Shown here: one piece after another, positions 4,901 to 23,730 of the stretch | Layout: each line of letters begins with the position of its first letter | Numbering within the stretch: position 1 is the stretch's first letter | Source of the DNA: a phage | Reading direction: 5' to 3' (one strand) | Sequence record: PZ212788.1 | Length of the DNA: 64,000 nt | Made by a program: the position numbers and the translations under genes | The notes under the pieces: generated by a model | What the model was told of the DNA's origin: nothing | Databases searched by the model: none | Seen by the model: only the letters and a program-made list of their open reading frames with translations

Positions 4901-7900
4901 ATGGCTGATATTAAAGTTGTCAGAATTGAATCTCTTCCTGCCACTACCGCAGTGACAGAGGATGATTACCTGGTTGTTCAACAACCAGACCTGACTCGTC
5001 GTGTAAAAATTGGCGATGTTGTCCATGTGGATGGGACTGTTTCTCATGTAATCTCCTTTAAGGAAGGTGGTAAGTTAAACGGCCCAATGGATTTTGCCTA
5101 CTTCGAAGAGGAAGACCTCTACCTGCGTTGGAAAGGCGAATTTCCACACACTGTTCCTGCACTGTCTTCACCGTACTCCGATGGTGGGATTACTGACGCT
5201 GCATGGATGGTATATACAGATCCGTCCTTAAGGGAGGAGCTGGAATCTACTATTGGCGCATCTATGATCATGACAGCCGAAGGGCAGTCTGTCCAGGATG
5301 TGATGGATGTTACGGTTCAGACAGCTAACGATGCTAAAGCACTTGCACAGCGGGTAGATTTTGGTACAGTACATACTGTAGGCGATGTTATTCACCTTGT
5401 CAACTTTGTGGGTCCTGCAGTTATTGAGGAGGGAAGAACCACCAACTACCCTTCCGTAGCAGCTGGTGAAAGATTTCTGAACGGTGTGGTATCTCGTCGT
5501 GATACTACAACTGTTGATGGTATTTTCCGTGGCGCTACCACCGGAGCCATGTACACCATTGCAGTAACCAACGGTGTAGCAACAACGAAAAGAATAGCAC
5601 TTCGTGATGAATTTAAACGCCTAGAGGCAAACAACCCAACAAGAACAGTTATCCGTGCTGGAGATGATTTAAATACGGCAGGGTACTTGCAGCTTGATGC
5701 AACAGGCCGTTGGGGTATGTGGAACCAACAAACAGCTTCGTGGCAACCTCTTGCTATAGAGCAAGGCGGCACAGGGGCTAGAGATGCCGCTGGAGTCCGT
5801 ATCAATATCGGTGCTTTCTATAAGCAACGTGCAGCCCTTGAGCCAAATTTCAATATCAATAACTTGACTGGTAATCAGGATGGTGTATACTATCAGCCAA
5901 TGACTGCTTATGCAACTGAGGCGAATGGTTACCCTGCAGGTTCTGGTGCGGGTCACTTGATTGTTTGGCAGAACAATGCTAACGGCGGTACAGGTTGTCG
6001 TCAGGAATACTATCCATTCTCTAACGTAGATGTTTGGTATTTGAGAACCTATCAGGCCAACACAAATCAGTGGACTGCATGGCAGCCGATGGTCAGACCT
6101 CGTAACGATGATACCTTCAGATCTCATATTGGCCTTGGTAAAAACAACTCGCCAGCCTTCGGGCACCTTTACTTAGCTCAATACTCGGGAGATGTTAAAT
6201 CGGCCTCAGGTATTCTCCATGGAGATAAATATAATACTGACGGTGTCCTTGAGCATGGATATAGGATCTATTCTGAGGTAAGAAACGACAATAAGGCTTG
6301 GTTGACAATCCACCTGCACAAAGGCGCAAAAGGATCTGAAACTCATAGATATTTAGGCTTCCGTGAGGATGGGGTCTTAGATTGTCCTAAATATATGCAG
6401 GTTGGTGATCTGAACGGTCAGATGGCAAACTGGGGACTTGGAGAATGGATCCGCAGTTCAGGAGCAGAAAGAGGTTTCTGGGGATCTAAGAAAGCCGCCA
6501 AGATGGTCATCTGGGATGGCGGTATGGACGAGCAAGGTGAAGGAACGCTTGAGTGGGGTGTTTATAACAACCGGAAAGCCAAATGGGAACCACTACCGAT
6601 AGCTTGTGGTGGTACCAGTGCCAGGACTGTAGGGGATGCTCAAGCACAATTCAGAATCCCTCTGGCAGCAGGTGCTAGACCATATGTAAACCTGCCTAGA
6701 ACTGCAGCTATGCAGGACGGTAAGTATTATCCTATTATCGTCAGAACTGACCCCAACTTTGCAGCAACTATCGGGACAGATTTAACCATTGTCACCAGAT
6801 CTTCTTCTGGCGGCGACCCAATGAACTGTGCTACACTACAGTGTCACTACAGAACTGGTGGCTGGACAGACAGAGGTGATTCTTTCCAAGGGGTTATTAA
6901 TTTCTACCAAAACGAGAAAGCAATCCTCGGATGTGTATCTCCAACCAGAGGTAAGCAGGAGTATGTTGCATTCTATGTAGAGGCACGTGCATTCCCTGTT
7001 ACAGTATATGCTGGCGCTACTGTAATAGAAGTGTCAACCAGGGAGGCTGATTGGCAGGTAGGCAACGTGACAGGTAACCAAGATGGTGTCAAGTTCTGTG
7101 CTCCTCTGGAATCTGCAGATTTGAGTCTTGCAATCAAAGGTGATGATGTAACAAACACCAGACCTCTGGTTGAGTTCAAAGGAACATCAGGTTTCTACAC
7201 TGGTGGTGGAACTATGTGGCACTACCTGGGGACTCCTGAACGCTATGCAGTGATGAGCAAAATGAACATGCCTAAAGTCGAGCTTTGGGCAGACGGTATT
7301 GACTACATTTGTCCTGGTAGTCAGACCACTAGAAAAGCACTGTTCTCTAACGCAGGGTTCCAAGCTGCATCGGAAGGAACAGAGGATCTGATCAACAACA
7401 CCTTTACCTCTAAATGTGGTAATGGTGCAAGACTGCAAGGCCAGGCAGAGTTCAGATCTACTCCGGAAGCTGGTCAAGTTATCGTTCGCGATGTTGTAGG
7501 TACAGCTCATAAGTTCTACAATTTCAACAAAGACGGCACATTTTTCCCTCCTGGAGGCTATGTTTGCCAGACAGGTGCTGACTGGAACAATCAGTTTGGT
7601 AATACAAACCCCTCCAAGATAATGGCTGGCAATGTCAACGGGCCGGAAGGTTCGATGGTTGTTGGTGGACTGTCTGTGGCGTTTTCTGGAAACTATGCTT
7701 TCCAAATGGCTGGTCGCCTTGATCAGTTATACACTAGGTCTATCGAAGGTGGTAACCATAGGGCATGGAACAAGGTTATTCAGCACCGTGGTCAAGGTCT
7801 GGGGACAGAAGACCTTAATGCCTACGATGGTAGCCGTGAAGGTTTCTATCACCAGGGTTCAAACGCTGACGCACTTGTAACAGATCGTCACTACCCTGCT

Positions 7901-16514: not shown

Positions 16515-18586
16515 TGGCAACAGCTGTTTTTAAACCTTACCGTGATTACTCTACAATGGCTGCACGGTTTCATTACCGAACAGTTCAGGATACTGCCGTT
16601 CCTGGTAGGGATTATGATCATGTTGAGGGCGATGTAACTATCCCAGTTGGGGCAACCAGTATTGAGATCCCCGTGGAAATTGTTGACAAATTACCCAACA
16701 GGTTGCCAAGAAGCTTCTTTATGGAGTTTTCATCAAAATCTCAAGGGGTGATGATTGGAACACAAAGGGCGAAATGTACAATAGTTTCAGATGAGAATCT
16801 TGACAGGATATCTTGGGATACTGTTGAGGAGAGAATGTTTCACCCAAGATATTGGGTTACAACCACTCAGCAGACTGAAAGTACCTGTATTGTTGCAGAT
16901 AACAACTGTTGTATTAACCGTTTAGTGTCAAGAACATATGGAGGTATGGCTGGGTGCATTTGGGAAACAGTTGACAAGTATGACCATTTCGGTATTGGGT
17001 TTGATGATCACTATGAGATGAGAAACACCAAGCTTTGGTTCAGAATGTCAATAACCAATGCCAGCAACTTCTCCACCCCTGAAAAGATGATTATGACTGT
17101 AGACCTTGTTGATGGCACAATCATCTATGTTCCTTTAGCTCAATATGCTGTCAGCATCTCAGAGGATAAGAATGTTGCAGAGATTCATATTGATTTCGAG
17201 GACTGCGTCGGGATGGATCAGAACAACAACATGATGGGTGTTGATCCTCGACAGGTGAGAAGGATTTTAATACCGCTTATGCCTAAAGACTGGGTAAGTA
17301 ATAGCACAGACCCGAGAACGGAAAATGTAGAGTGTGAGTTGCGCCTAGATCTGCTCCAGCCAGACACAGGCTGGAAAATGATGCAACTTAACAATATTCA
17401 GGTTAAAGAGCACGACGTTGGGATCTGCACCGCATATGACGATATGTGGAACGTATCTCCTTTAAGGGTGTTGAACAATATCAAGCGTCTGGGCTATACC
17501 GGAACCATAAACCATTATGTTGGTATGAGTCATTATTATGACTACACATGGTCAGGAACCCAATGGTCTATAAACAGAACAGGGGCGCTAAACGCTGCAG
17601 CTTATAAATGGCATGATGATTTTATGTACAATGCCAAACGACATAACTTCGACGTTATGCAATCTGTAAGTTTTGAGCTTTTCAGCGATGCCTGCCCGTT
17701 GGAATGGACCCAAAGAGACTGGAACGATAACTACGCTAAAACAGGGTATACACCCTGTAGCTACCTCCTGTCTCCAACCATTGAAGAGGGTATGAATTTC
17801 CTTACTGCAGTATTTAAGAATTTTGCATCAGCCGCTATGAGAAACAACCTGCCAGTGATTATGCAGGTTGGTGAACCGTGGTGGTGGTACAATACCGATA
17901 CTCGTAGACCTTGTATTTATGATTACCCTACAAAGCAGGCGTTTTATGATGAGACAGGTGAGTATGCATTAGATATTGGGACTATTGACGATCCTAAAAC
18001 TGGCGGTGTTTACGACAAGTATGTAGCATTTTGTCGTGGTAAGCTTGGCGCTCGTATTGCGGCTATTTCAAAGGCAATAAAGGCACACGCTGCATCAGCT
18101 CAGATGACAGCTTTGCTGTTTTTCCCAACCATCATGGAAACCGAGCTTACGCAAAAGCTGAACCTTGCTGACCAATATAAAAAGGAAGCAGGTGCTCTTG
18201 ATTTCTTCTGCACCGAGTGCTACGATTGGGTGATGCAGGGAGGTATTGAAAAGGCAAAAGAGTCTGTAAACATACCTATCGTTAAGTTAGGTTGGCAACC
18301 GTCTGAAATACAATACCTTGCAGGGTTCGTTCCTAGTAAAGAGCTTGCTCCGGTATATGGCTACGACCCAACCAGGAATTACCAAGAATTTTTATGGAGA
18401 TGTATCTGCGGAAACATGGCAACCATAGAGTATAGATACCCTGAGGTAAAACAGTATGTGTGGGCATACCCGCAAGTAATGTCTGACAGCATCACTGTTA
18501 CAGCCAGAGATTCTACCGTGCTTCATATGGGGCAGGTTGCTCTGAAAGGGTATGTAGAAGATGTTGTCCCTCCAGACTTCTCATAA
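16514..18586 (+). CDS. tail-associated protein with possible glycoside hydrolase (TIM-barrel-like) domain
   Basis: 690 aa; central region with FELFSDACP ... MQVGEPWWWYNT patterns reminiscent of acid/nucleophile strands of clan-A glycosidases; translationally coupled in tail operon. Confidence 0.35.
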   Translation: MATAVFKPYRDYSTMAARFHYRTVQDTAVPGRDYDHVEGDVTIPVGATSIEIPVEIVDKLPNRLPRSFFMEFSSKSQGVMIGTQRAKCTIVSDENLDRISWDTVEERMFHPRYWVTTTQQTESTCIVADNNCCINRLVSRTYGGMAGCIWETVDKYDHFGIGFDDHYEMRNTKLWFRMSITNASNFSTPEKMIMTVDLVDGTIIYVPLAQYAVSISEDKNVAEIHIDFEDCVGMDQNNNMMGVDPRQVRRILIPLMPKDWVSNSTDPRTENVECELRLDLLQPDTGWKMMQLNNIQVKEHDVGICTAYDDMWNVSPLRVLNNIKRLGYTGTINHYVGMSHYYDYTWSGTQWSINRTGALNAAAYKWHDDFMYNAKRHNFDVMQSVSFELFSDACPLEWTQRDWNDNYAKTGYTPCSYLLSPTIEEGMNFLTAVFKNFASAAMRNNLPVIMQVGEPWWWYNTDTRRPCIYDYPTKQAFYDETGEYALDIGTIDDPKTGGVYDKYVAFCRGKLGARIAAISKAIKAHAASAQMTALLFFPTIMETELTQKLNLADQYKKEAGALDFFCTECYDWVMQGGIEKAKESVNIPIVKLGWQPSEIQYLAGFVPSKELAPVYGYDPTRNYQEFLWRCICGNMATIEYRYPEVKQYVWAYPQVMSDSITVTARDSTVLHMGQVALKGYVEDVVPPDFS

Positions 18587-18598
18587 TCAGGAGATAAA

Positions 18599-19639
18599 AT
18601 GTCAAAACCTAGTTTTCCATTAGAGATTTGGGCAGAGGAGGATCAGGTTCTGCCTAACACCCACAGACAGAACAGGCTACGCCCGATTGATGATTTGTGG
18701 AGAAAAGGTTGGGATCTTGGTCAAAAGCCATCCTGTGAAGAACTTAACTATATTTTCAATATGCTCGGAACTTGGGCAAAATACATTGCTGACGAGCAGA
18801 TCCCCGCTCAAGAAGGCCGTTATCTGGTACGTGATAATAACTTGAGCGATCTTTTGAACATCCCTGTTGCCCGTAGAAACCTTGGGATTATCACTAAGGA
18901 AGAGGCAGACGCCAGGTATGTAAAAGTTACAGGTGATACAATGACAGGCCCCTTGGGGTTGCAACGTATCAACTTTAAAGCTGCCGAGACAGATAAGGCT
19001 TGGATAGAGACAACTATTGGCCCAGATAAGACAACTCTCGACTTTGGGTTAAGTGATAATACCGGGTCGTTTGATGATGGTGGTACATCTACAGTAGATG
19101 CGTTTCGTTGGAGATTCCAGCCAACTCAGCCGGATATTAATCCAGAGTTCACTTTGATGTACCTTAACGCGATCACGGCTAATCGTGCGCTGTTGAAAGT
19201 GGTAGGCAATGTTGAAGTTGTCGATAACATGAGGTGCAATAACCTTACTATCAGCAATACAGCAACATTCACCAACTGTAATGTGGCTAGTCAGTTGACG
19301 GCTGGGTCAGTATATGTTAATGGTGGTGCAAGTTGTGACAGTATGGTTGTAAGAAGCCAGCACTGTGTTGTCGGTAACAGAAATGTGGTGCGCTCCGTGA
19401 ATGGAGTGACGGCTAACGGTAACGGTGATGTAACGATCACTATCCCGCAGACAGGTGTGCAAGACATCAGAATCGGTGCAAGACTTGTGGACGGCGTTTC
19501 TGAATCTCCAATCCGCAACGGCTACGTTGTCACAGGCTGGCATTTCGGTGACAAAAAAGAGATGCGTGGTTCAACCTACTGGGCAGGACCTTTACAAAAA
19601 CTTGTAAATGGTCAATGGATCACTGTTAATTATGCATAG
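18599..19639 (+). CDS. tail fibre protein (paralogue A)
   Basis: 346 aa; N-terminal ~200 aa and C-terminal YWAGPLQKLVNGQWITVNYA shared with 20654-21697; followed by a Tfa chaperone gene. Confidence 0.6.
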   Translation: MSKPSFPLEIWAEEDQVLPNTHRQNRLRPIDDLWRKGWDLGQKPSCEELNYIFNMLGTWAKYIADEQIPAQEGRYLVRDNNLSDLLNIPVARRNLGIITKEEADARYVKVTGDTMTGPLGLQRINFKAAETDKAWIETTIGPDKTTLDFGLSDNTGSFDDGGTSTVDAFRWRFQPTQPDINPEFTLMYLNAITANRALLKVVGNVEVVDNMRCNNLTISNTATFTNCNVASQLTAGSVYVNGGASCDSMVVRSQHCVVGNRNVVRSVNGVTANGNGDVTITIPQTGVQDIRIGARLVDGVSESPIRNGYVVTGWHFGDKKEMRGSTYWAGPLQKLVNGQWITVNYA

Positions 19640-19653
19640 ATCGGAGGACTAGC

Positions 19654-20238
19654 ATGAAAATACTTCAAGAGTTTAAACTTTACCAACCGGGATCTGGCGA
19701 ATACCACTCCAACAAGGAAACCAAGGAGCTGACCCCTCAAGAGGTCGAGGATTACACCGCATACACTGGGTATTTTTTACGTAATGATGATGGTGATTGG
19801 TATGTGCAGTCACGAACATTACGACAAGAAAATCCAGGGTGTATCTTCCTACTTGTTGACGAGAAGGGAATTCTTAAGACATCTACAGAAGAACCTGATG
19901 CCTTATGGCCTGCTCCAGGTCTTCGTGTGGTTATCGCCAAAAAAGAAGAGGTACCAGAAAACATTATGCTTCACCACGACGCTTTGCGTTTAGTTGGTGA
20001 TGAATTTGTCACAGACAATGAATTCTTTGTTCAACAGGCAGAGGGTGTCATAGAGACAGAACTTGCTTGGGCTACTGCTAGAATTGGTGCCTATCAAGAC
20101 ATGATTGACCTTGAATATGATCTTACTGATGACCAGAAACGTAACATCAGAGATTTGAAAATGTACAGGGTAAAACTTCTTGAAATAGATACATCTAAAG
20201 CCCCTGACATTTTCTTCCCGGAGCGACCTACCCTCTAA
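19654..20238 (+). CDS. tail fibre assembly chaperone (Tfa/gpG-like)
   Basis: C-terminus ...DLKMYRVKLLEIDTSKAPDIFFPERP matches the conserved tail-fibre-assembly protein C-terminal motif (KxYRVxLxxxDxSxAPDIxWPxxP). Confidence 0.7.
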   Translation: MKILQEFKLYQPGSGEYHSNKETKELTPQEVEDYTAYTGYFLRNDDGDWYVQSRTLRQENPGCIFLLVDEKGILKTSTEEPDALWPAPGLRVVIAKKEEVPENIMLHHDALRLVGDEFVTDNEFFVQQAEGVIETELAWATARIGAYQDMIDLEYDLTDDQKRNIRDLKMYRVKLLEIDTSKAPDIFFPERPTL

Positions 20239-20249
20239 GAGGAGGTGTT

Positions 20250-20564
20250 GTGGAGTTGGATTTGGCGGCATTGTACGGTATCTGCATGGGTACCGTTGTC
20301 CCGATCTGTGTATGGGCTTTCAACCAGTGGCACACCAAATGGAAAGGCATTTCCAAGAGGTTGGATGAGCTGGAGAAAGACCTCATCTTAGTGAAAAACA
20401 GTATGGTTACAAAAGATAGACTTGATTCCGTTATCGAGACTCGGTTAAGCAAGCTAGAGGCCGATATTAACGACCTTAAGCAGGATGTCAGGACAGATGT
20501 CTCCGGCATCCGAGCTGATGTACAAAAGATTTTGCACATGCTCGTAGAGCATAGTAAAAGGTAA
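20250..20564 (+). CDS. membrane-anchored coiled-coil protein (holin- or spanin-like candidate)
   Basis: 104 aa; hydrophobic N-terminal helix (ALYGICMGTVVPICVWAF) then charged heptad-like region; GAGGAGG RBS. Confidence 0.3.
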   Translation: MELDLAALYGICMGTVVPICVWAFNQWHTKWKGISKRLDELEKDLILVKNSMVTKDRLDSVIETRLSKLEADINDLKQDVRTDVSGIRADVQKILHMLVEHSKR

Positions 20565-20572
20565 ACAAAGGT

Positions 20573-20607
20573 CAGAACGGAAAGGACTCCGTTCTTGCAT
20601 TTTGTTC
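20573..20607 (+). terminator. rho-independent terminator
   Basis: cagaacgg-aaaggact-ccgttcttg followed by cattttgttc. Confidence 0.55.
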
Positions 20608-20623
20608 TCTAAAGTGTTAAAAT
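20595..20623 (+). promoter_or_regulatory. sigma70-like promoter with extended -10 (TTGCAT-17-TGtTAAAAT)
   Basis: -35 TTGCAT 20595-20600 overlapping the terminator stem; TGt TAAAAT 20615-20623; shares TAAAATAG with other promoters. Confidence 0.5.
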
Positions 20624-20653
20624 AGTCCTAAGGAATTTTCTCAGGAGAACGTG

Positions 20654-21697
20654 ATGACTAAACCAGTTATCCCTCTTGATATTTGGGCCAATCAGGATGT
20701 TGTGCTTGAAAATACGGGAGAGTTGAATAAGTCTCAACCAAAAAAAGAAGAGAGATTGAAAGGTTGGGATATGACACAAAGAATGGCATGTGAAGTTGTT
20801 AACTTTGAACTTCACATGCTTTCTGCGTGGTTGAAGCATTTAACAGAAGATGTTGTCCCAGGATGGGATAATAGATTCTTAAAGGTCACTAATAATCTAG
20901 CAGACGTTCCAGACAAAGCTGCTGCACGTCAAGTTCTCAATGTATACTCACCTGAAGAAATGGACGATCTATATGTTGACAAGTCTGGAGACATAATGAC
21001 TCAGACTCAAACTTTAGGTCTCCAAAGAATCGAGTTTGCATCTGCGTCAACAGACAGTGCGGCAATATATACCACCATAACGCCAGACAAGACGACGATG
21101 GATTTCTGGATTATGGACAACATCGGTGGTGCTGACGGCACAGACCTTGATGATCCTTCTCACCAAATAGACGGGTTCCGTTGGAGATTTCAACCTTCTG
21201 GTGGGCAGCCTGTGTTTTCGGCTATGAAGCTCAATGCTATAACTGCCAACCGTGCAAGACTGGCTATCCAAGGAAATCTTGAATGCAACGATGCAAAAAG
21301 TTCCTCTGCAAATGCCAATGCGGTCACGATACCAAGAGCCACTGTTAACGGACAACAATCCTGCGGAAGCGCTCAAATAGGTGGAAGAGTTGATTGTAAC
21401 GATGAAACCGTTAGAGGCCAATATGCAACCGTTGGTGGAAGAAACGTGGTCCGCAGGGTAAACGGTAACAGCGCAGACGGTAGTGGTAACCTTACTGTCC
21501 CTATGCCCAGTAGAGGGGTTGACGATGTAAGGATAGCAAACCGTTTCAAAACCACCTACAGAGAGTCAAGAGTCTACCCTGGACATGTGATGTGCTCTGG
21601 TAACTACGCTTATAAACACCCTTATCAAGGTGATTACTGGACAGGTGCTATCCAAAAACTTGTAAACGGTCAATGGATCACTATATCTTATGCTTAA
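20654..21697 (+). CDS. tail fibre protein (paralogue B)
   Basis: Start trimmed to ATG 20654 (AGGAGA RBS); N-terminus and C-terminal YWTGAIQKLVNGQWITISYA homologous to 18599 ORF, central region divergent. Confidence 0.6.
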   Translation: MTKPVIPLDIWANQDVVLENTGELNKSQPKKEERLKGWDMTQRMACEVVNFELHMLSAWLKHLTEDVVPGWDNRFLKVTNNLADVPDKAAARQVLNVYSPEEMDDLYVDKSGDIMTQTQTLGLQRIEFASASTDSAAIYTTITPDKTTMDFWIMDNIGGADGTDLDDPSHQIDGFRWRFQPSGGQPVFSAMKLNAITANRARLAIQGNLECNDAKSSSANANAVTIPRATVNGQQSCGSAQIGGRVDCNDETVRGQYATVGGRNVVRRVNGNSADGSGNLTVPMPSRGVDDVRIANRFKTTYRESRVYPGHVMCSGNYAYKHPYQGDYWTGAIQKLVNGQWITISYA

Positions 21698-21708
21698 AAA
21701 GAGGGTAA

Positions 21709-21975
21709 ATGAAACTAACTCAGTTTTTATGGGGACTGGTTGCGGCATCTGATGACCCTACGAAAGTATCCCAATCTAAGCTATGGTCGAACATAGGCAT
21801 GGCGGTGATGACTGGGGTGTTTATTCATATGGGGTATAATGATACGCTTCCTGAATGGTATGCGTGGATATATGCACCTTCAGTAGCCTGCCCCCAGCTT
21901 ATTAGCAAATTCATCTCGCTCCGGTGGGGTTGCCAGCACCCTGACCACGTTAAAAACGAAGAGCAAAAAGCTTAA
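21709..21975 (+). CDS. small membrane protein downstream of fibre paralogue B
   Basis: 88 aa with one hydrophobic segment (IGMAVMTGVFIHMGY); RBS AGAGGG. Confidence 0.3.
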   Translation: MKLTQFLWGLVAASDDPTKVSQSKLWSNIGMAVMTGVFIHMGYNDTLPEWYAWIYAPSVACPQLISKFISLRWGCQHPDHVKNEEQKA

Positions 21976-21984
21976 GGAGAAATC

Positions 21985-23730
21985 ATGGCGCAAGACATGA
22001 CAAGCTTCGAGCAGGCGGTAGATCAAGTAATTGTTGATTCTGAACGTTTGCACTTGATTGTCAACGGTAACGCTGTGGATGAAGTTGTCGTAGAGGATGG
22101 GACCACTATCCCTACGGTACGAAAAGCCATGCTTGACACCCTTTATTTTAAAACGCCACCAATCCCTTGGGCGTATGGTGCATCCACAACAGTTTTTAAC
22201 CAGTTGTATGAGTTTAAAGGGGATACAGGCACTCAGTGGTGGTACGCCCCAGCAGCATCAAAATCTAACCCGGTTAGAATGCCAGCAGATCCTTCACAAT
22301 CTCCAAACTGGAGATTATACACCGACTCTGCAGTAATGGCAAAATACTACGCAAAACTTAACAGCCCAAGGTTCGAAGGTGACCCGCGAGTACCTACACC
22401 TCCAATGGACGACAAATCCGAGTCTATAGCAAACACAGAGTTTGTTGTTGACTATGTGGATAGCATATTTGAAGCCATGGAGGGAATGAAAGTTACTGTA
22501 GGGTCTTTGGTGGTAAAAGGTCTTACAGAACTTGCTAACACTATAGTTGGTGGCACACTCACCTTACATGGGCCTGTTAATGGAGCAGATTCTACTGCAC
22601 GCTTCAGGAACCTAATCCTCACGGCAAATACTTCTACACTTACTTTTGCGTGGAGTGATCCTAAGCATGCAGACTGGAGAAGCACAGAGCTGCAACCTCA
22701 TGAAGTGTCCACCCACAGGGTTATAGCTGACACTATAACTTCTGGGAAACCAGTGGCTAATAATAACGATGTGCATTTTGATGGTCTAGGTAATAACTTT
22801 TTTGACTACGTGTACATTCGTGGTAATGCCATGAAGGCAGCAACCGAACCGACATTGCAGGTAGATGGAACCACCAGGGTTAAGAACCTTGAGGTGACAG
22901 GCACTGTTACAGGGATAACCTACTCTGTCGATGGCACCATGATTTACCCTAGCTATATTGAAAGCACGGGGGACGCATTAATAAATGGTGATTTAGAAGT
23001 TGGCGGATCTGTAGTTATTCGAGGTACAGCCTCTATCCAAAACATAGCTCTGAATACCCTAAGAGTCAATGAGCGTGCAACTTTTGAAGGGGAAGGGCTT
23101 ACAGCCAACAAAGGTGTAATTACCGAGCTGACAACCACTACTTTAACTGCAACAACTGCAAACTCTGAAAACTGCAACGTTACCAGAAACTTGCAGGTAA
23201 ATGGAGATGTTAGTTTAAACGCAGCAGGGACGGGCACCACCTACCTTCACAACCTTGAAATATCCGGCACAGTGACTGGGTGGCTGCCAGACTTCTCTAA
23301 TGTCAACTTTGTTTGTAATGGCATTAACTCCAGTGGCAAGATAACCACCTCTCAAGAAATTGAGGCGGGTAAAACCATTACTGCCCCTACTTTCCACGCA
23401 GGAAAGGTAGATTTTGATTTAGAGGAGGTTGACGCGTCCAGTGGGACATGGACACCTAACGGGCAGGCCAGTATGTATGTTGTCCACGCGAAAGGGGATT
23501 TTACAATAGGACAATGGCCTGGTACATCAGCGGAAGATAAACCTTATCCATTCACTGCGGTTATCTATGTCATTCAGGATGCTGTAGGTCACAACGTGAC
23601 TTTGCACGATAAGTATGCTATCCTGTCGGCAACGCCTGTTATTAATAACAAGGCTAATAGTGTTACCTTGCTGCAATTAACATATTGTGGTGTTGGTGAT
23701 ATCGTAGACGTAGTAATTGCACAACGTTAA
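21985..23730 (+). CDS. tail fibre protein
   Basis: 581 aa; N-terminal region contains the fibre collar-type motif PRFEGDPRVPTPPMDDKSESIANTEFV seen in side tail fibres; AAGGAG RBS. Confidence 0.55.
   Translation: MAQDMTSFEQAVDQVIVDSERLHLIVNGNAVDEVVVEDGTTIPTVRKAMLDTLYFKTPPIPWAYGASTTVFNQLYEFKGDTGTQWWYAPAASKSNPVRMPADPSQSPNWRLYTDSAVMAKYYAKLNSPRFEGDPRVPTPPMDDKSESIANTEFVVDYVDSIFEAMEGMKVTVGSLVVKGLTELANTIVGGTLTLHGPVNGADSTARFRNLILTANTSTLTFAWSDPKHADWRSTELQPHEVSTHRVIADTITSGKPVANNNDVHFDGLGNNFFDYVYIRGNAMKAATEPTLQVDGTTRVKNLEVTGTVTGITYSVDGTMIYPSYIESTGDALINGDLEVGGSVVIRGTASIQNIALNTLRVNERATFEGEGLTANKGVITELTTTTLTATTANSENCNVTRNLQVNGDVSLNAAGTGTTYLHNLEISGTVTGWLPDFSNVNFVCNGINSSGKITTSQEIEAGKTITAPTFHAGKVDFDLEEVDASSGTWTPNGQASMYVVHAKGDFTIGQWPGTSAEDKPYPFTAVIYVIQDAVGHNVTLHDKYAILSATPVINNKANSVTLLQLTYCGVGDIVDVVIAQR

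Follow-up and report, generated by a model that had tools for sequence, protein, structure and literature searches.

A paralogous short tail fibre pair and a single assembly chaperone at the rV5-type locus of a Vequintavirus phage

Two short tail fibre genes and one chaperone

The phage sequence record PZ212788.1 was analysed as one stretch of 64,000 nucleotides (hereafter the window), read on a single strand from 5′ to 3′, with a focus on a tail-module locus that encodes two related short tail fibres (STFs), here called A and B, together with one tail fibre assembly chaperone (Tfa; Table 1). A phage database search placed the region 18000-22500 at 98-99% nucleotide identity to more than 100 complete genomes of Vequintavirus, the rV5-like coliphages, including naswa, DrSchubert, LL12 and rV5 derivatives. 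In the matching records, two genes of this locus carry the name 'short tail fiber protein' and one the name 'tail fiber chaperone'; the small ones are listed as hypothetical or membrane proteins. The window is an isolate of an rV5-like myovirus (Vequintavirus) carrying the short tail fibre locus, and its tail-module order (baseplate J, baseplate, NCTSP-like protein, STF, Tfa, orf104, STF, orf88, fibre) is identical to that of DrSchubert, rV5_ev146, FV3 and AlexBoehm. Numbering of the open reading frames (ORFs) by their rV5 counterparts was fixed via cross-references in the PVP-SE1 and phi92 records. Set against gp33, gp30 and gp32 of rV5-type phages, the window has the same genes in the same order and at the same lengths, with 99.7% amino acid identity for A and about 98% for B. 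Nothing material differs, and the window represents another isolate of the genus. Across rV5 and the BASEL phages, A is 99.7-100% identical and is annotated there as 'short tail fiber protein'.

Table 1. Genes and sequence features of the short tail fibre locus in the 64,000-nucleotide window
Feature	Coordinates	Strand	rV5 counterpart	Assignment or basis
NCTSP-like protein, 690 aa	16514..18586			Calx-beta, NCTSP_N and NCTSP TIM-barrel domains
Short tail fibre paralog A, 346 aa	18599..19639	+	gp33	PHROG 4465
Putative N-terminal baseplate-attachment domain of A, aa 1-108	18599..18922	+		phmmer match to 9cuy
Mu-S-type tip of A, aa 286-346, with loop TGWHFGDKKEMRG	19454..19636	+		Mu S alignment
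Last 20 codons of A, YWAGPLQKLVNGQWITVNYA	19577..19636	+		Family-wide C-terminal motif
Tail fibre assembly chaperone (Tfa), 194 aa	19654..20238	+	gp32	Caudo_TAP PF02413, PHROG 136
orf104, 104 aa	20250..20564	+	gp31	PHROG 5345; N-terminal hydrophobic segment
Terminator-like hairpin, 8 bp, followed by a T-rich run	20574..20595	+		Terminator scan
TGnTAAAAT, extended -10-like element	20615..20623	+		Consensus match only; conserved in distant lineage L006
Short tail fibre paralog B, 347 aa	20654..21697	+	gp30	PHROG 4465
Last 20 codons of B, YWTGAIQKLVNGQWITISYA	21635..21694	+		Direct repeat D1
orf88, 88 aa	21709..21975	+	gp29	PHROG 1322 'membrane protein', E = 2.7e-32
Fibre, 581 aa	21985..23730		gp28	Phage_phiTE_241_N/C domains

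The first-pass annotation of this DNA, made from the letters alone, had proposed two paralogous fibre genes, and this is borne out over their full length. They are complete genes on one and the same strand, and composition-adjusted BLASTP aligns the two proteins over their entire length (43% identity, 59% positives, E = 1e-95), so the similarity is not confined to low-complexity segments. Both also match the family profile PHROG 4465 ('tail fiber protein') from their first to their last residue, A with E = 1.8e-171 (residues 1-346 on profile positions 1-342) and B with E = 7.5e-166 (residues 1-347 on the same positions). B starts with the ATG at 20654, which lies six nucleotides past an AGGAG sequence, and not with the GTG at 20651. 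No extra copy of either fibre was found in the window, and a scan of the five locus proteins and PVP-SE1 gp43 against NCBIfam gave zero matches.

The distribution of identity along the pair departs from the proposed picture of conserved termini enclosing a divergent centre. Counted along A, identity to B is 43% over residues 1-60, 33% over 61-115, 54% over 116-205, 24% over 206-250, 53% over 251-293, 21% over 294-326 and 75% over 327-346. The result is a mosaic with a conserved block between two short divergent patches and an N-terminus that does not stand out for its conservation. The first ~200 residues, described earlier as shared, are only 46% identical when pooled, compared with 34% over residues 201-326. 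The N-terminal anchor belongs to the less conserved parts of the pair, and it is here that B departs most from the wider family. The C-terminal end of the scheme did hold, as the final 20 residues carry the terminal motif exactly as it had been written (YWAGPLQKLVNGQWITVNYA in A and YWTGAIQKLVNGQWITISYA in B). The idea of duplication followed by divergence of the tip is a reasonable reading, and the same one that Kropinski 2013 had reached (PMC3606486), while the architecture attached to it was only partly right.

The observation that only the first fibre is followed by a chaperone gene was confirmed. Tfa matches PF02413 with 45.7 bits (cut-off 22.1; residues 121-192 on profile positions 60-130) and PHROG 136 with E = 2.2e-36. 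No second Tfa was found in the window, and the gene after B is the 88-aa ORF. The Vequintavirus Tfa also carries an insertion of ~12 residues near its N-terminus (residues ~13-26), which is missing from the Tfa of single-fibre relatives, and 6 of the 12 residues of Tfa that vary within the genus fall at positions 8-23, in or beside this insertion.

Much of this locus has been described before. Kropinski 2013 reported that rV5 gp30 (347 aa) and gp33 are 42.3% identical and related to short tail fibres, detected gp30, gp32 and gp33 in rV5 virions by mass spectrometry, and proposed "two chemotypes of LPS" for the gp30/gp33 pair (PMC3606486), LPS being lipopolysaccharide. Maffei 2021 described two paralogous short tail fibres and a chaperone in Vequintavirinae sensu stricto, homologous to a single-copy phi92-like locus and ultimately to Mu S/U, and saw no notable allelic variation of the short fibres (PMC8594841). 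RBPseg 2025 put the fibre in structural class TC1, with a Mu-like C-terminus likely to need Tfa, and cryo-electron microscopy (cryo-EM) maps of Bas49 and Bas54 show density of the STF class at 7-9.5 A (PMC12143355). The fibre pair, its Mu S/U homology and the dual-specificity idea are thus already known, and what the present analysis adds (the insertion site, the relative rates and the spacer hairpin) is incremental.

Matches to the locus also come from 16 to 21 GenBank records of about 135-150 kb (MG0656xx) that bear the name 'Campylobacter phage' and give Campylobacter jejuni as host. Most of these matches are ~98% identical to the Escherichia coli Vequintavirus locus, though for at least one record, B15, the match covers the fibre tip only. 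The Campylobacter host label on the MG0656xx records looks like a mis-assignment or contamination.

Anchor, tip and terminal motif

At the N-terminus, phmmer matches both fibres to the short tail fibre of Pectobacterium phage phiTE (PDB 9cuy chain c, residues 1-111), more strongly for A (E = 1.4e-19, 73 bits) than for B (E = 3.7e-8, 36 bits). In the phiTE structure, the joint that binds baseplate wedge 1 is made up of short-fibre residues 3-92, and the long fibre contacts the short fibre (PMC11972413). By analogy, the N-terminus of A and B presumably docks on a baseplate wedge protein. Over residues 1-110, A is 54-59% identical to outgroup proteins and B at most 47% (45% to most), with about 38% between A and B. 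The likeness to the fibre of phiTE, a Certrevirus, is one of the N-terminal ~110 residues. Beyond this anchor the two differ, since the phiTE fibre is 554 aa long with a coiled coil and immunoglobulin-like domains, its phage is flagellotropic, and phmmer matches only the last ~20 residues to A, weakly and without significance.

The other end of A resembles the tip of the phage Mu fibre. The stretch 286-343 of A aligns with residues 440-501 of Mu S (PDB 5yvq), with E = 1.7e-6 for the full protein and 2.4e-4 for an 84-aa fragment, alongside a weaker match to Mu S'. An AlphaFold2 (AF2) monomer model of A built on a 32-sequence alignment reached a mean predicted local distance difference test score (pLDDT) of 62.5 and a predicted TM-score (pTM) of 0.35. 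We used this model for structural comparison with Mu S only and never for domain mapping; its sole significant Foldseek match in the PDB was 5yvq_A, the Mu fibre-chaperone complex, with E = 1e-7 and probability 1.00 at a TM-score of only 0.16, as compared from a low-confidence monomer. The tip of A is also ~60% identical to the tips of phi92 gp147 and PVP-SE1 gp46, with which it has in common the loop GVSES..G(H/Y)V.TGWxFGxKKExRG. B is without the TGWxFGxKKExRG part of this loop, which is kept across three genera, and has CSGNYAYKHPYQGD / TYRESRVYPGHVMCSGNYAYKHPYQGD at that place. The tip of B is tied to Mu S only through A, by 40% identity between A and B over residues 294-346 and by the common terminal motif.

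The motif P-x-Q-K/Y-x-V/I-N-G-x-W that closes both proteins also ends Mu S, Mu S', the phiTE short tail fibre and phi92 gp147, so the last 20 residues are a family-wide signature of this tip type and not one specific to A and B. In the DNA, the 62-nt direct repeat D1 at the 3′ end of B is 82% identical to 19577-19638. Synonymous divergence between A and B is lower here than elsewhere (pS 0.35 in the last 20 codons versus about 0.85), with an identical codon at 12 of the 15 common residues (P = 4e-4), and in the distant lineage L006 three synonymous sites within QKLVNGQW vary together by genome. We considered gene conversion between A and B on this account. A four-sequence site-pattern test gave no significant result: overall, 23 sites followed the 'by genome' pattern and 29 the homoplasy control, and for the last 20 codons the counts were 3 and 0. 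The low 3′ synonymous divergence is therefore suggestive only. Micro gene conversion at the two 3′ ends is possible from these patterns.

The comparison with Mu extends to the gene arrangement. Mu S/S', with the chaperones U/U' (PDB 5yvq; North et al. 2019), and A have a C-terminal tip fold and terminal motif in common, and in both phages a Caudo_TAP chaperone gene lies directly downstream, its product being retained in virions. Mu differs in switching tips by inversion of its G segment, with one constant N-terminal part and a chaperone for each tip, whereas the window has two complete, co-expressed fibre genes, one chaperone and no inversion. A search for invertible or shufflon-type switching of the Mu G or P1 C kind found two weak pairs of inverted repeats of 14-18 nt, at chance level. 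T4 gp12, which binds the LPS core and thereby commits the baseplate, has an analogous role. Kropinski 2013 obtained HHpred matches to 1PDI of 98.4% for gp30 (B) and 97.7% for gp33 (A) (PMC3606486). Our phmmer searches of A and B against all PDB sequences returned zero gp12 chains at E <= 1, and the folding of gp12 depends on gp57A instead of a Caudo_TAP protein. We treat T4 gp12 as a functional analogue of A and B and not as their family.

Origin and divergence of the second copy

Relatives with a single fibre show what may have stood in the place of B. In Salmonella phage PVP-SE1 (Seunavirus) and in VLCpiM5a (Mydovirus) the order is STF, Tfa, orf104, a protein with four transmembrane segments (4-TM), orf88 and fibre. 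The slot of B is filled there by this 157-aa 4-TM protein (PHROG 7451; PVP-SE1 gp43, at 6997-7470 in locus L003; 6838-7311 in the Mydovirus locus L005). The fibres PVP-SE1 gp46, the Mydovirus fibre and phi92 gp147 are orthologous to A and sit in the same STF-Tfa-orf104 module; these phages differ from Vequintavirus in having one fibre copy and the 4-TM gene at the position of B. A search of the window for a remnant of the 4-TM gene gave noise only (best E = 0.79). In a neighbour-joining tree of 32 homologs with 200 bootstraps, the A and B clades were sisters in 199 of 200 replicates on all columns and in 157 of 200 on the tip. Duplication within the lineage is the simplest reading of this tree, although it is not proven domain by domain.

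The two copies have not diverged at the same pace. Full-length identity to the single fibre of PVP-SE1 is 45% for A and 36% for B. Within the genus, most records are at least 99% identical for A and 95-99% for B, and among 10-11 Vequintavirus genomes we counted 7 variable residues in A and 24 in B, with ratios of nonsynonymous to synonymous substitution (dN/dS) of 0.019 and 0.067, respectively. These within-genus comparisons were used because the dN/dS of the window against L006 was unusable, with dS saturated for most genes, and within-genus variation was measured on GenBank phage records, an IMG/VR scan with B having given only 4 loci. Both A and B are under strong purifying selection and both are functional. 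No variable hot spot at the centre or the tip, and no alternative alleles, were found among the 10-11 genomes of the genus. Lineage L006, at about 75% nucleotide identity, retains the same gene order, with A 87%, B 78% and Tfa 78% identical. Between B and its distant counterpart B', residues 294-346 are 94% identical against 72-79% elsewhere, as would be expected of a working ligand-binding surface in the tip and not of a decaying copy. Taken together with the outgroup comparisons, A is the canonical copy, since PVP-SE1 and phi92 have a single fibre whose anchor and tip it matches, and B is the derived, faster-evolving one.

In more distant phages the fibre is modular. Those of Certrevirus and Aeromonas have only the N-terminal ~110 residues in common with it, the Mydovirus similarity covers residues 1-291, and in phi92-like and 52-kb Salmonella phages strong similarity (about 60%) is found only in the tip (residues 287-343); outside it, phi92 gp147 aligns weakly, with 27% identity overall. 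A further A-type variant, 73-74% identical to A, was seen in metagenomes (346 aa, 159 member sequences, on ENA contigs of up to 13 kb), and 38 phage records have between 60% and 80% identity to A.

B is also set apart by the DNA that precedes it. The spacer of 89 nt is the only long one in the gene block, neighbouring genes being 9-14 nt apart, and it contains a terminator-like hairpin with an RNA fold z-score of -2.8. Across 4 distinct sequences, 96.8% of the hairpin cells are paired and three of the eight pairs show compensatory changes, while all slid controls gave 0. The TGnTAAAAT element downstream was not reported by a -35/-10 promoter scan; from its consensus match, it is possible that it serves as an own promoter for B and the genes downstream. 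Hairpin and element may together act as a terminator and promoter that open a transcription unit at B.

The small ORFs on either side of B had been described as membrane-associated and linked to the second fibre. The first part applies to orf104, which has one clear hydrophobic segment (residues 5-23, Kyte-Doolittle 1.91) followed by a charged, probably helical tail. It does not extend to orf88, where a hydropathy scan found no segment above a crude threshold and the name 'membrane protein' comes from PHROG 1322 and the PVP-SE1 annotation only. The link to the second fibre fails, as orthologs of both flank the 4-TM gene in the single-fibre PVP-SE1 and Mydovirus. The orthologs of orf104 directly follow the Tfa gene (6686-7000 in L003 of PVP-SE1; 6527-6841 in L005 of Mydovirus), and those of orf88 are PVP-SE1 gp42 and phi92 gp144. 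Both small ORFs are therefore ancestral to the locus and predate B. At the orf104 position of phi92 lies gp149 (5757-6098 in locus L004, 'lipoprotein'), which is 20% identical, belongs to a different PHROG and has the same architecture of a transmembrane segment and a charged helix. A role of orf104 as an i-spanin or a gp57A-like chaperone was considered, the only hint being a weak 'Rz-like spanin' PHROG match of the phi92 analogue (E = 9e-4), with no evident partner lipoprotein. Some GenBank records label orf104 as a tail fibre assembly protein.

Two larger proteins border the locus. Directly upstream of A, the 690-aa NCTSP-like protein resembles the N4 gp65 non-contractile sheath / deacetylase receptor-binding protein; it is not at the matching position in PVP-SE1 or Mydovirus, and recent work links it to the NGR/ECA glycan receptor. 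Downstream, the domains of the 581-aa fibre (Pfam, from precomputed matches on orthologs in loci L006-L008) tie it to the third, unmodelled fibre candidate of phiTE.

Receptor binding and competing explanations

Host genetics bear on the receptor. LL12 requires WaaC, WaaF and WaaG, and with them Glc I of the LPS outer core (PMC7229145), and all Vequintavirinae of the BASEL collection fail on waaC and waaG mutants (PMC8594841), which together point to outer-core Glc I as the terminal receptor (PMC7229145, PMC8594841). With these results, we consider it probable that the rV5-type locus encodes a duplicated pair of short fibres that are both present in the virion, that B provides a second specificity or docking mode, and that one Tfa serves the pair. 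For this reading, homology, synteny, domain matches and purifying selection come from the present analysis and presence in the virion from the literature, while the receptor of B, the shared chaperone and the docking site are what we infer.

In such a scheme, A and B would form two homotrimeric short fibres built into the baseplate, each with an N-terminal domain docking on the wedge, a beta-rich shaft with a variable segment at residues 206-250, and a Mu-S-type tip that would bind a cell-surface receptor, most likely the LPS core. The adjacent Tfa (gp32), of the Mu-U type, would fold and trimerise the tip and stay on the particle. A would have the anchor and the LPS-core-binding tip that are canonical for this phage group. 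B may have arisen from a duplicated A-like gene before the known Vequintavirus lineages split, landing in the slot of the 4-TM gene with a spacer of its own (the hairpin and -10-like element); its anchor and its distal tip loop would be where it has since changed the most. The likely outcome for B would be a second glycan specificity, a second docking mode, or both. Both fibres are probably served by the single Tfa, by way of the C-terminal motif, or strand, that they have kept. In Mu-type Tfa, according to published work, the variable N-domain binds the fibre tip and stays on the particle, and the conserved C-domain drives trimerisation.

Several points weigh against this scheme. The genetics show one dependence on the LPS core, not two, which would fit equally well with redundant fibres or with a B that binds something other than LPS, and the receptors of A and of B are each assigned by inference. 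A and B grouped as sisters in only 1 of 200 replicates for the N-terminal 115 columns and in 18 of 200 for columns 116-290; support for the duplication thus comes chiefly from the full-length signal and from the tip, with long-branch effects a possibility. The tip of B has no direct sequence match to 5yvq at E <= 10, the poor AF2 model of A leaves the domain boundaries approximate, and at 7.3-9.5 A the cryo-EM maps of Bas49 and Bas54 are too low in resolution to separate A from B. Finally, one Tfa acting on two tips that are 21% identical in residues 294-326 is not assured. In Mu and P1, each alternative fibre has its own chaperone.

There are other possible explanations for the retention of two copies. 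B could be a structural or adaptor fibre that docks off wedge 1, for instance on another lateral fibre, within a 'Swiss army knife' of fibres in which A alone reads the LPS core. The anchor is indeed the most diverged part of B relative to the outgroups and to phiTE, the genetics show a single core dependence, Vequintaviruses carry extra fibres that PVP-SE1 lacks at the locus (such as the 690-aa NCTSP-like protein), and in phiTE the long fibre touches the short one. On the other side, B retains the Mu-S-type C-terminal motif in full, and its tip is the part best conserved across lineages, which suits a constrained ligand surface. We regard this explanation as improbable. Still less probable, in our view, is that A and B are redundant and bind the same LPS-core target, with the duplication providing dosage or robustness. 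The lack of allelic variation between genomes and the uniform waaC/waaG phenotype (PMC8594841), the strong purifying selection on both copies and the common C-terminal motif would all be accommodated. Redundancy sits poorly with the divergence of the tip loop and with the absence from B of a loop motif kept in three genera, and both of two redundant copies would rarely persist at 43% identity, with dN/dS below 0.1, across the divergence to a lineage at 75% nucleotide identity.

The cassette exchange suggested by the first-pass annotation, in which central receptor-binding domains are swapped between phages with the conserved termini as recombination anchors, would agree with the modularity of the fibre at larger distances and with the unusually low synonymous divergence in the last 20 codons. 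Within the genus it is largely refuted by the sequence comparisons, and we think it very improbable. Both genes are near-invariant in Vequintavirus, with few variable residues, low dN/dS and no hot spot at the centre or tip, and the relative at ~75% identity has the same order; the 5′ ends are only 33-43% identical in amino acids with no DNA repeat there, and the site-pattern test gave no significant signal.

Returning to a B with a second specificity or docking mode, a more elaborate form can be drawn up, in which B is neofunctionalised, came with a terminator and promoter spacer of its own, is attached at another site than A by a remodelled anchor, reads a second glycan by means of its rewritten tip loop and is folded by the shared Tfa via the C-terminal motif, with occasional micro gene conversion keeping that motif matched. 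As a whole this chain is speculative and rather unlikely to hold in every part. If true, Vequintaviruses would offer a natural example of a single chaperone for two receptor-binding tips, with the C-terminal 20 residues as a portable chaperone tag for fibre engineering. The rV5-like phages, with their ~9 fibres, are common candidates for therapy and biocontrol. A canonical tip in A and a unique tip in B would guide which gene to take up first.

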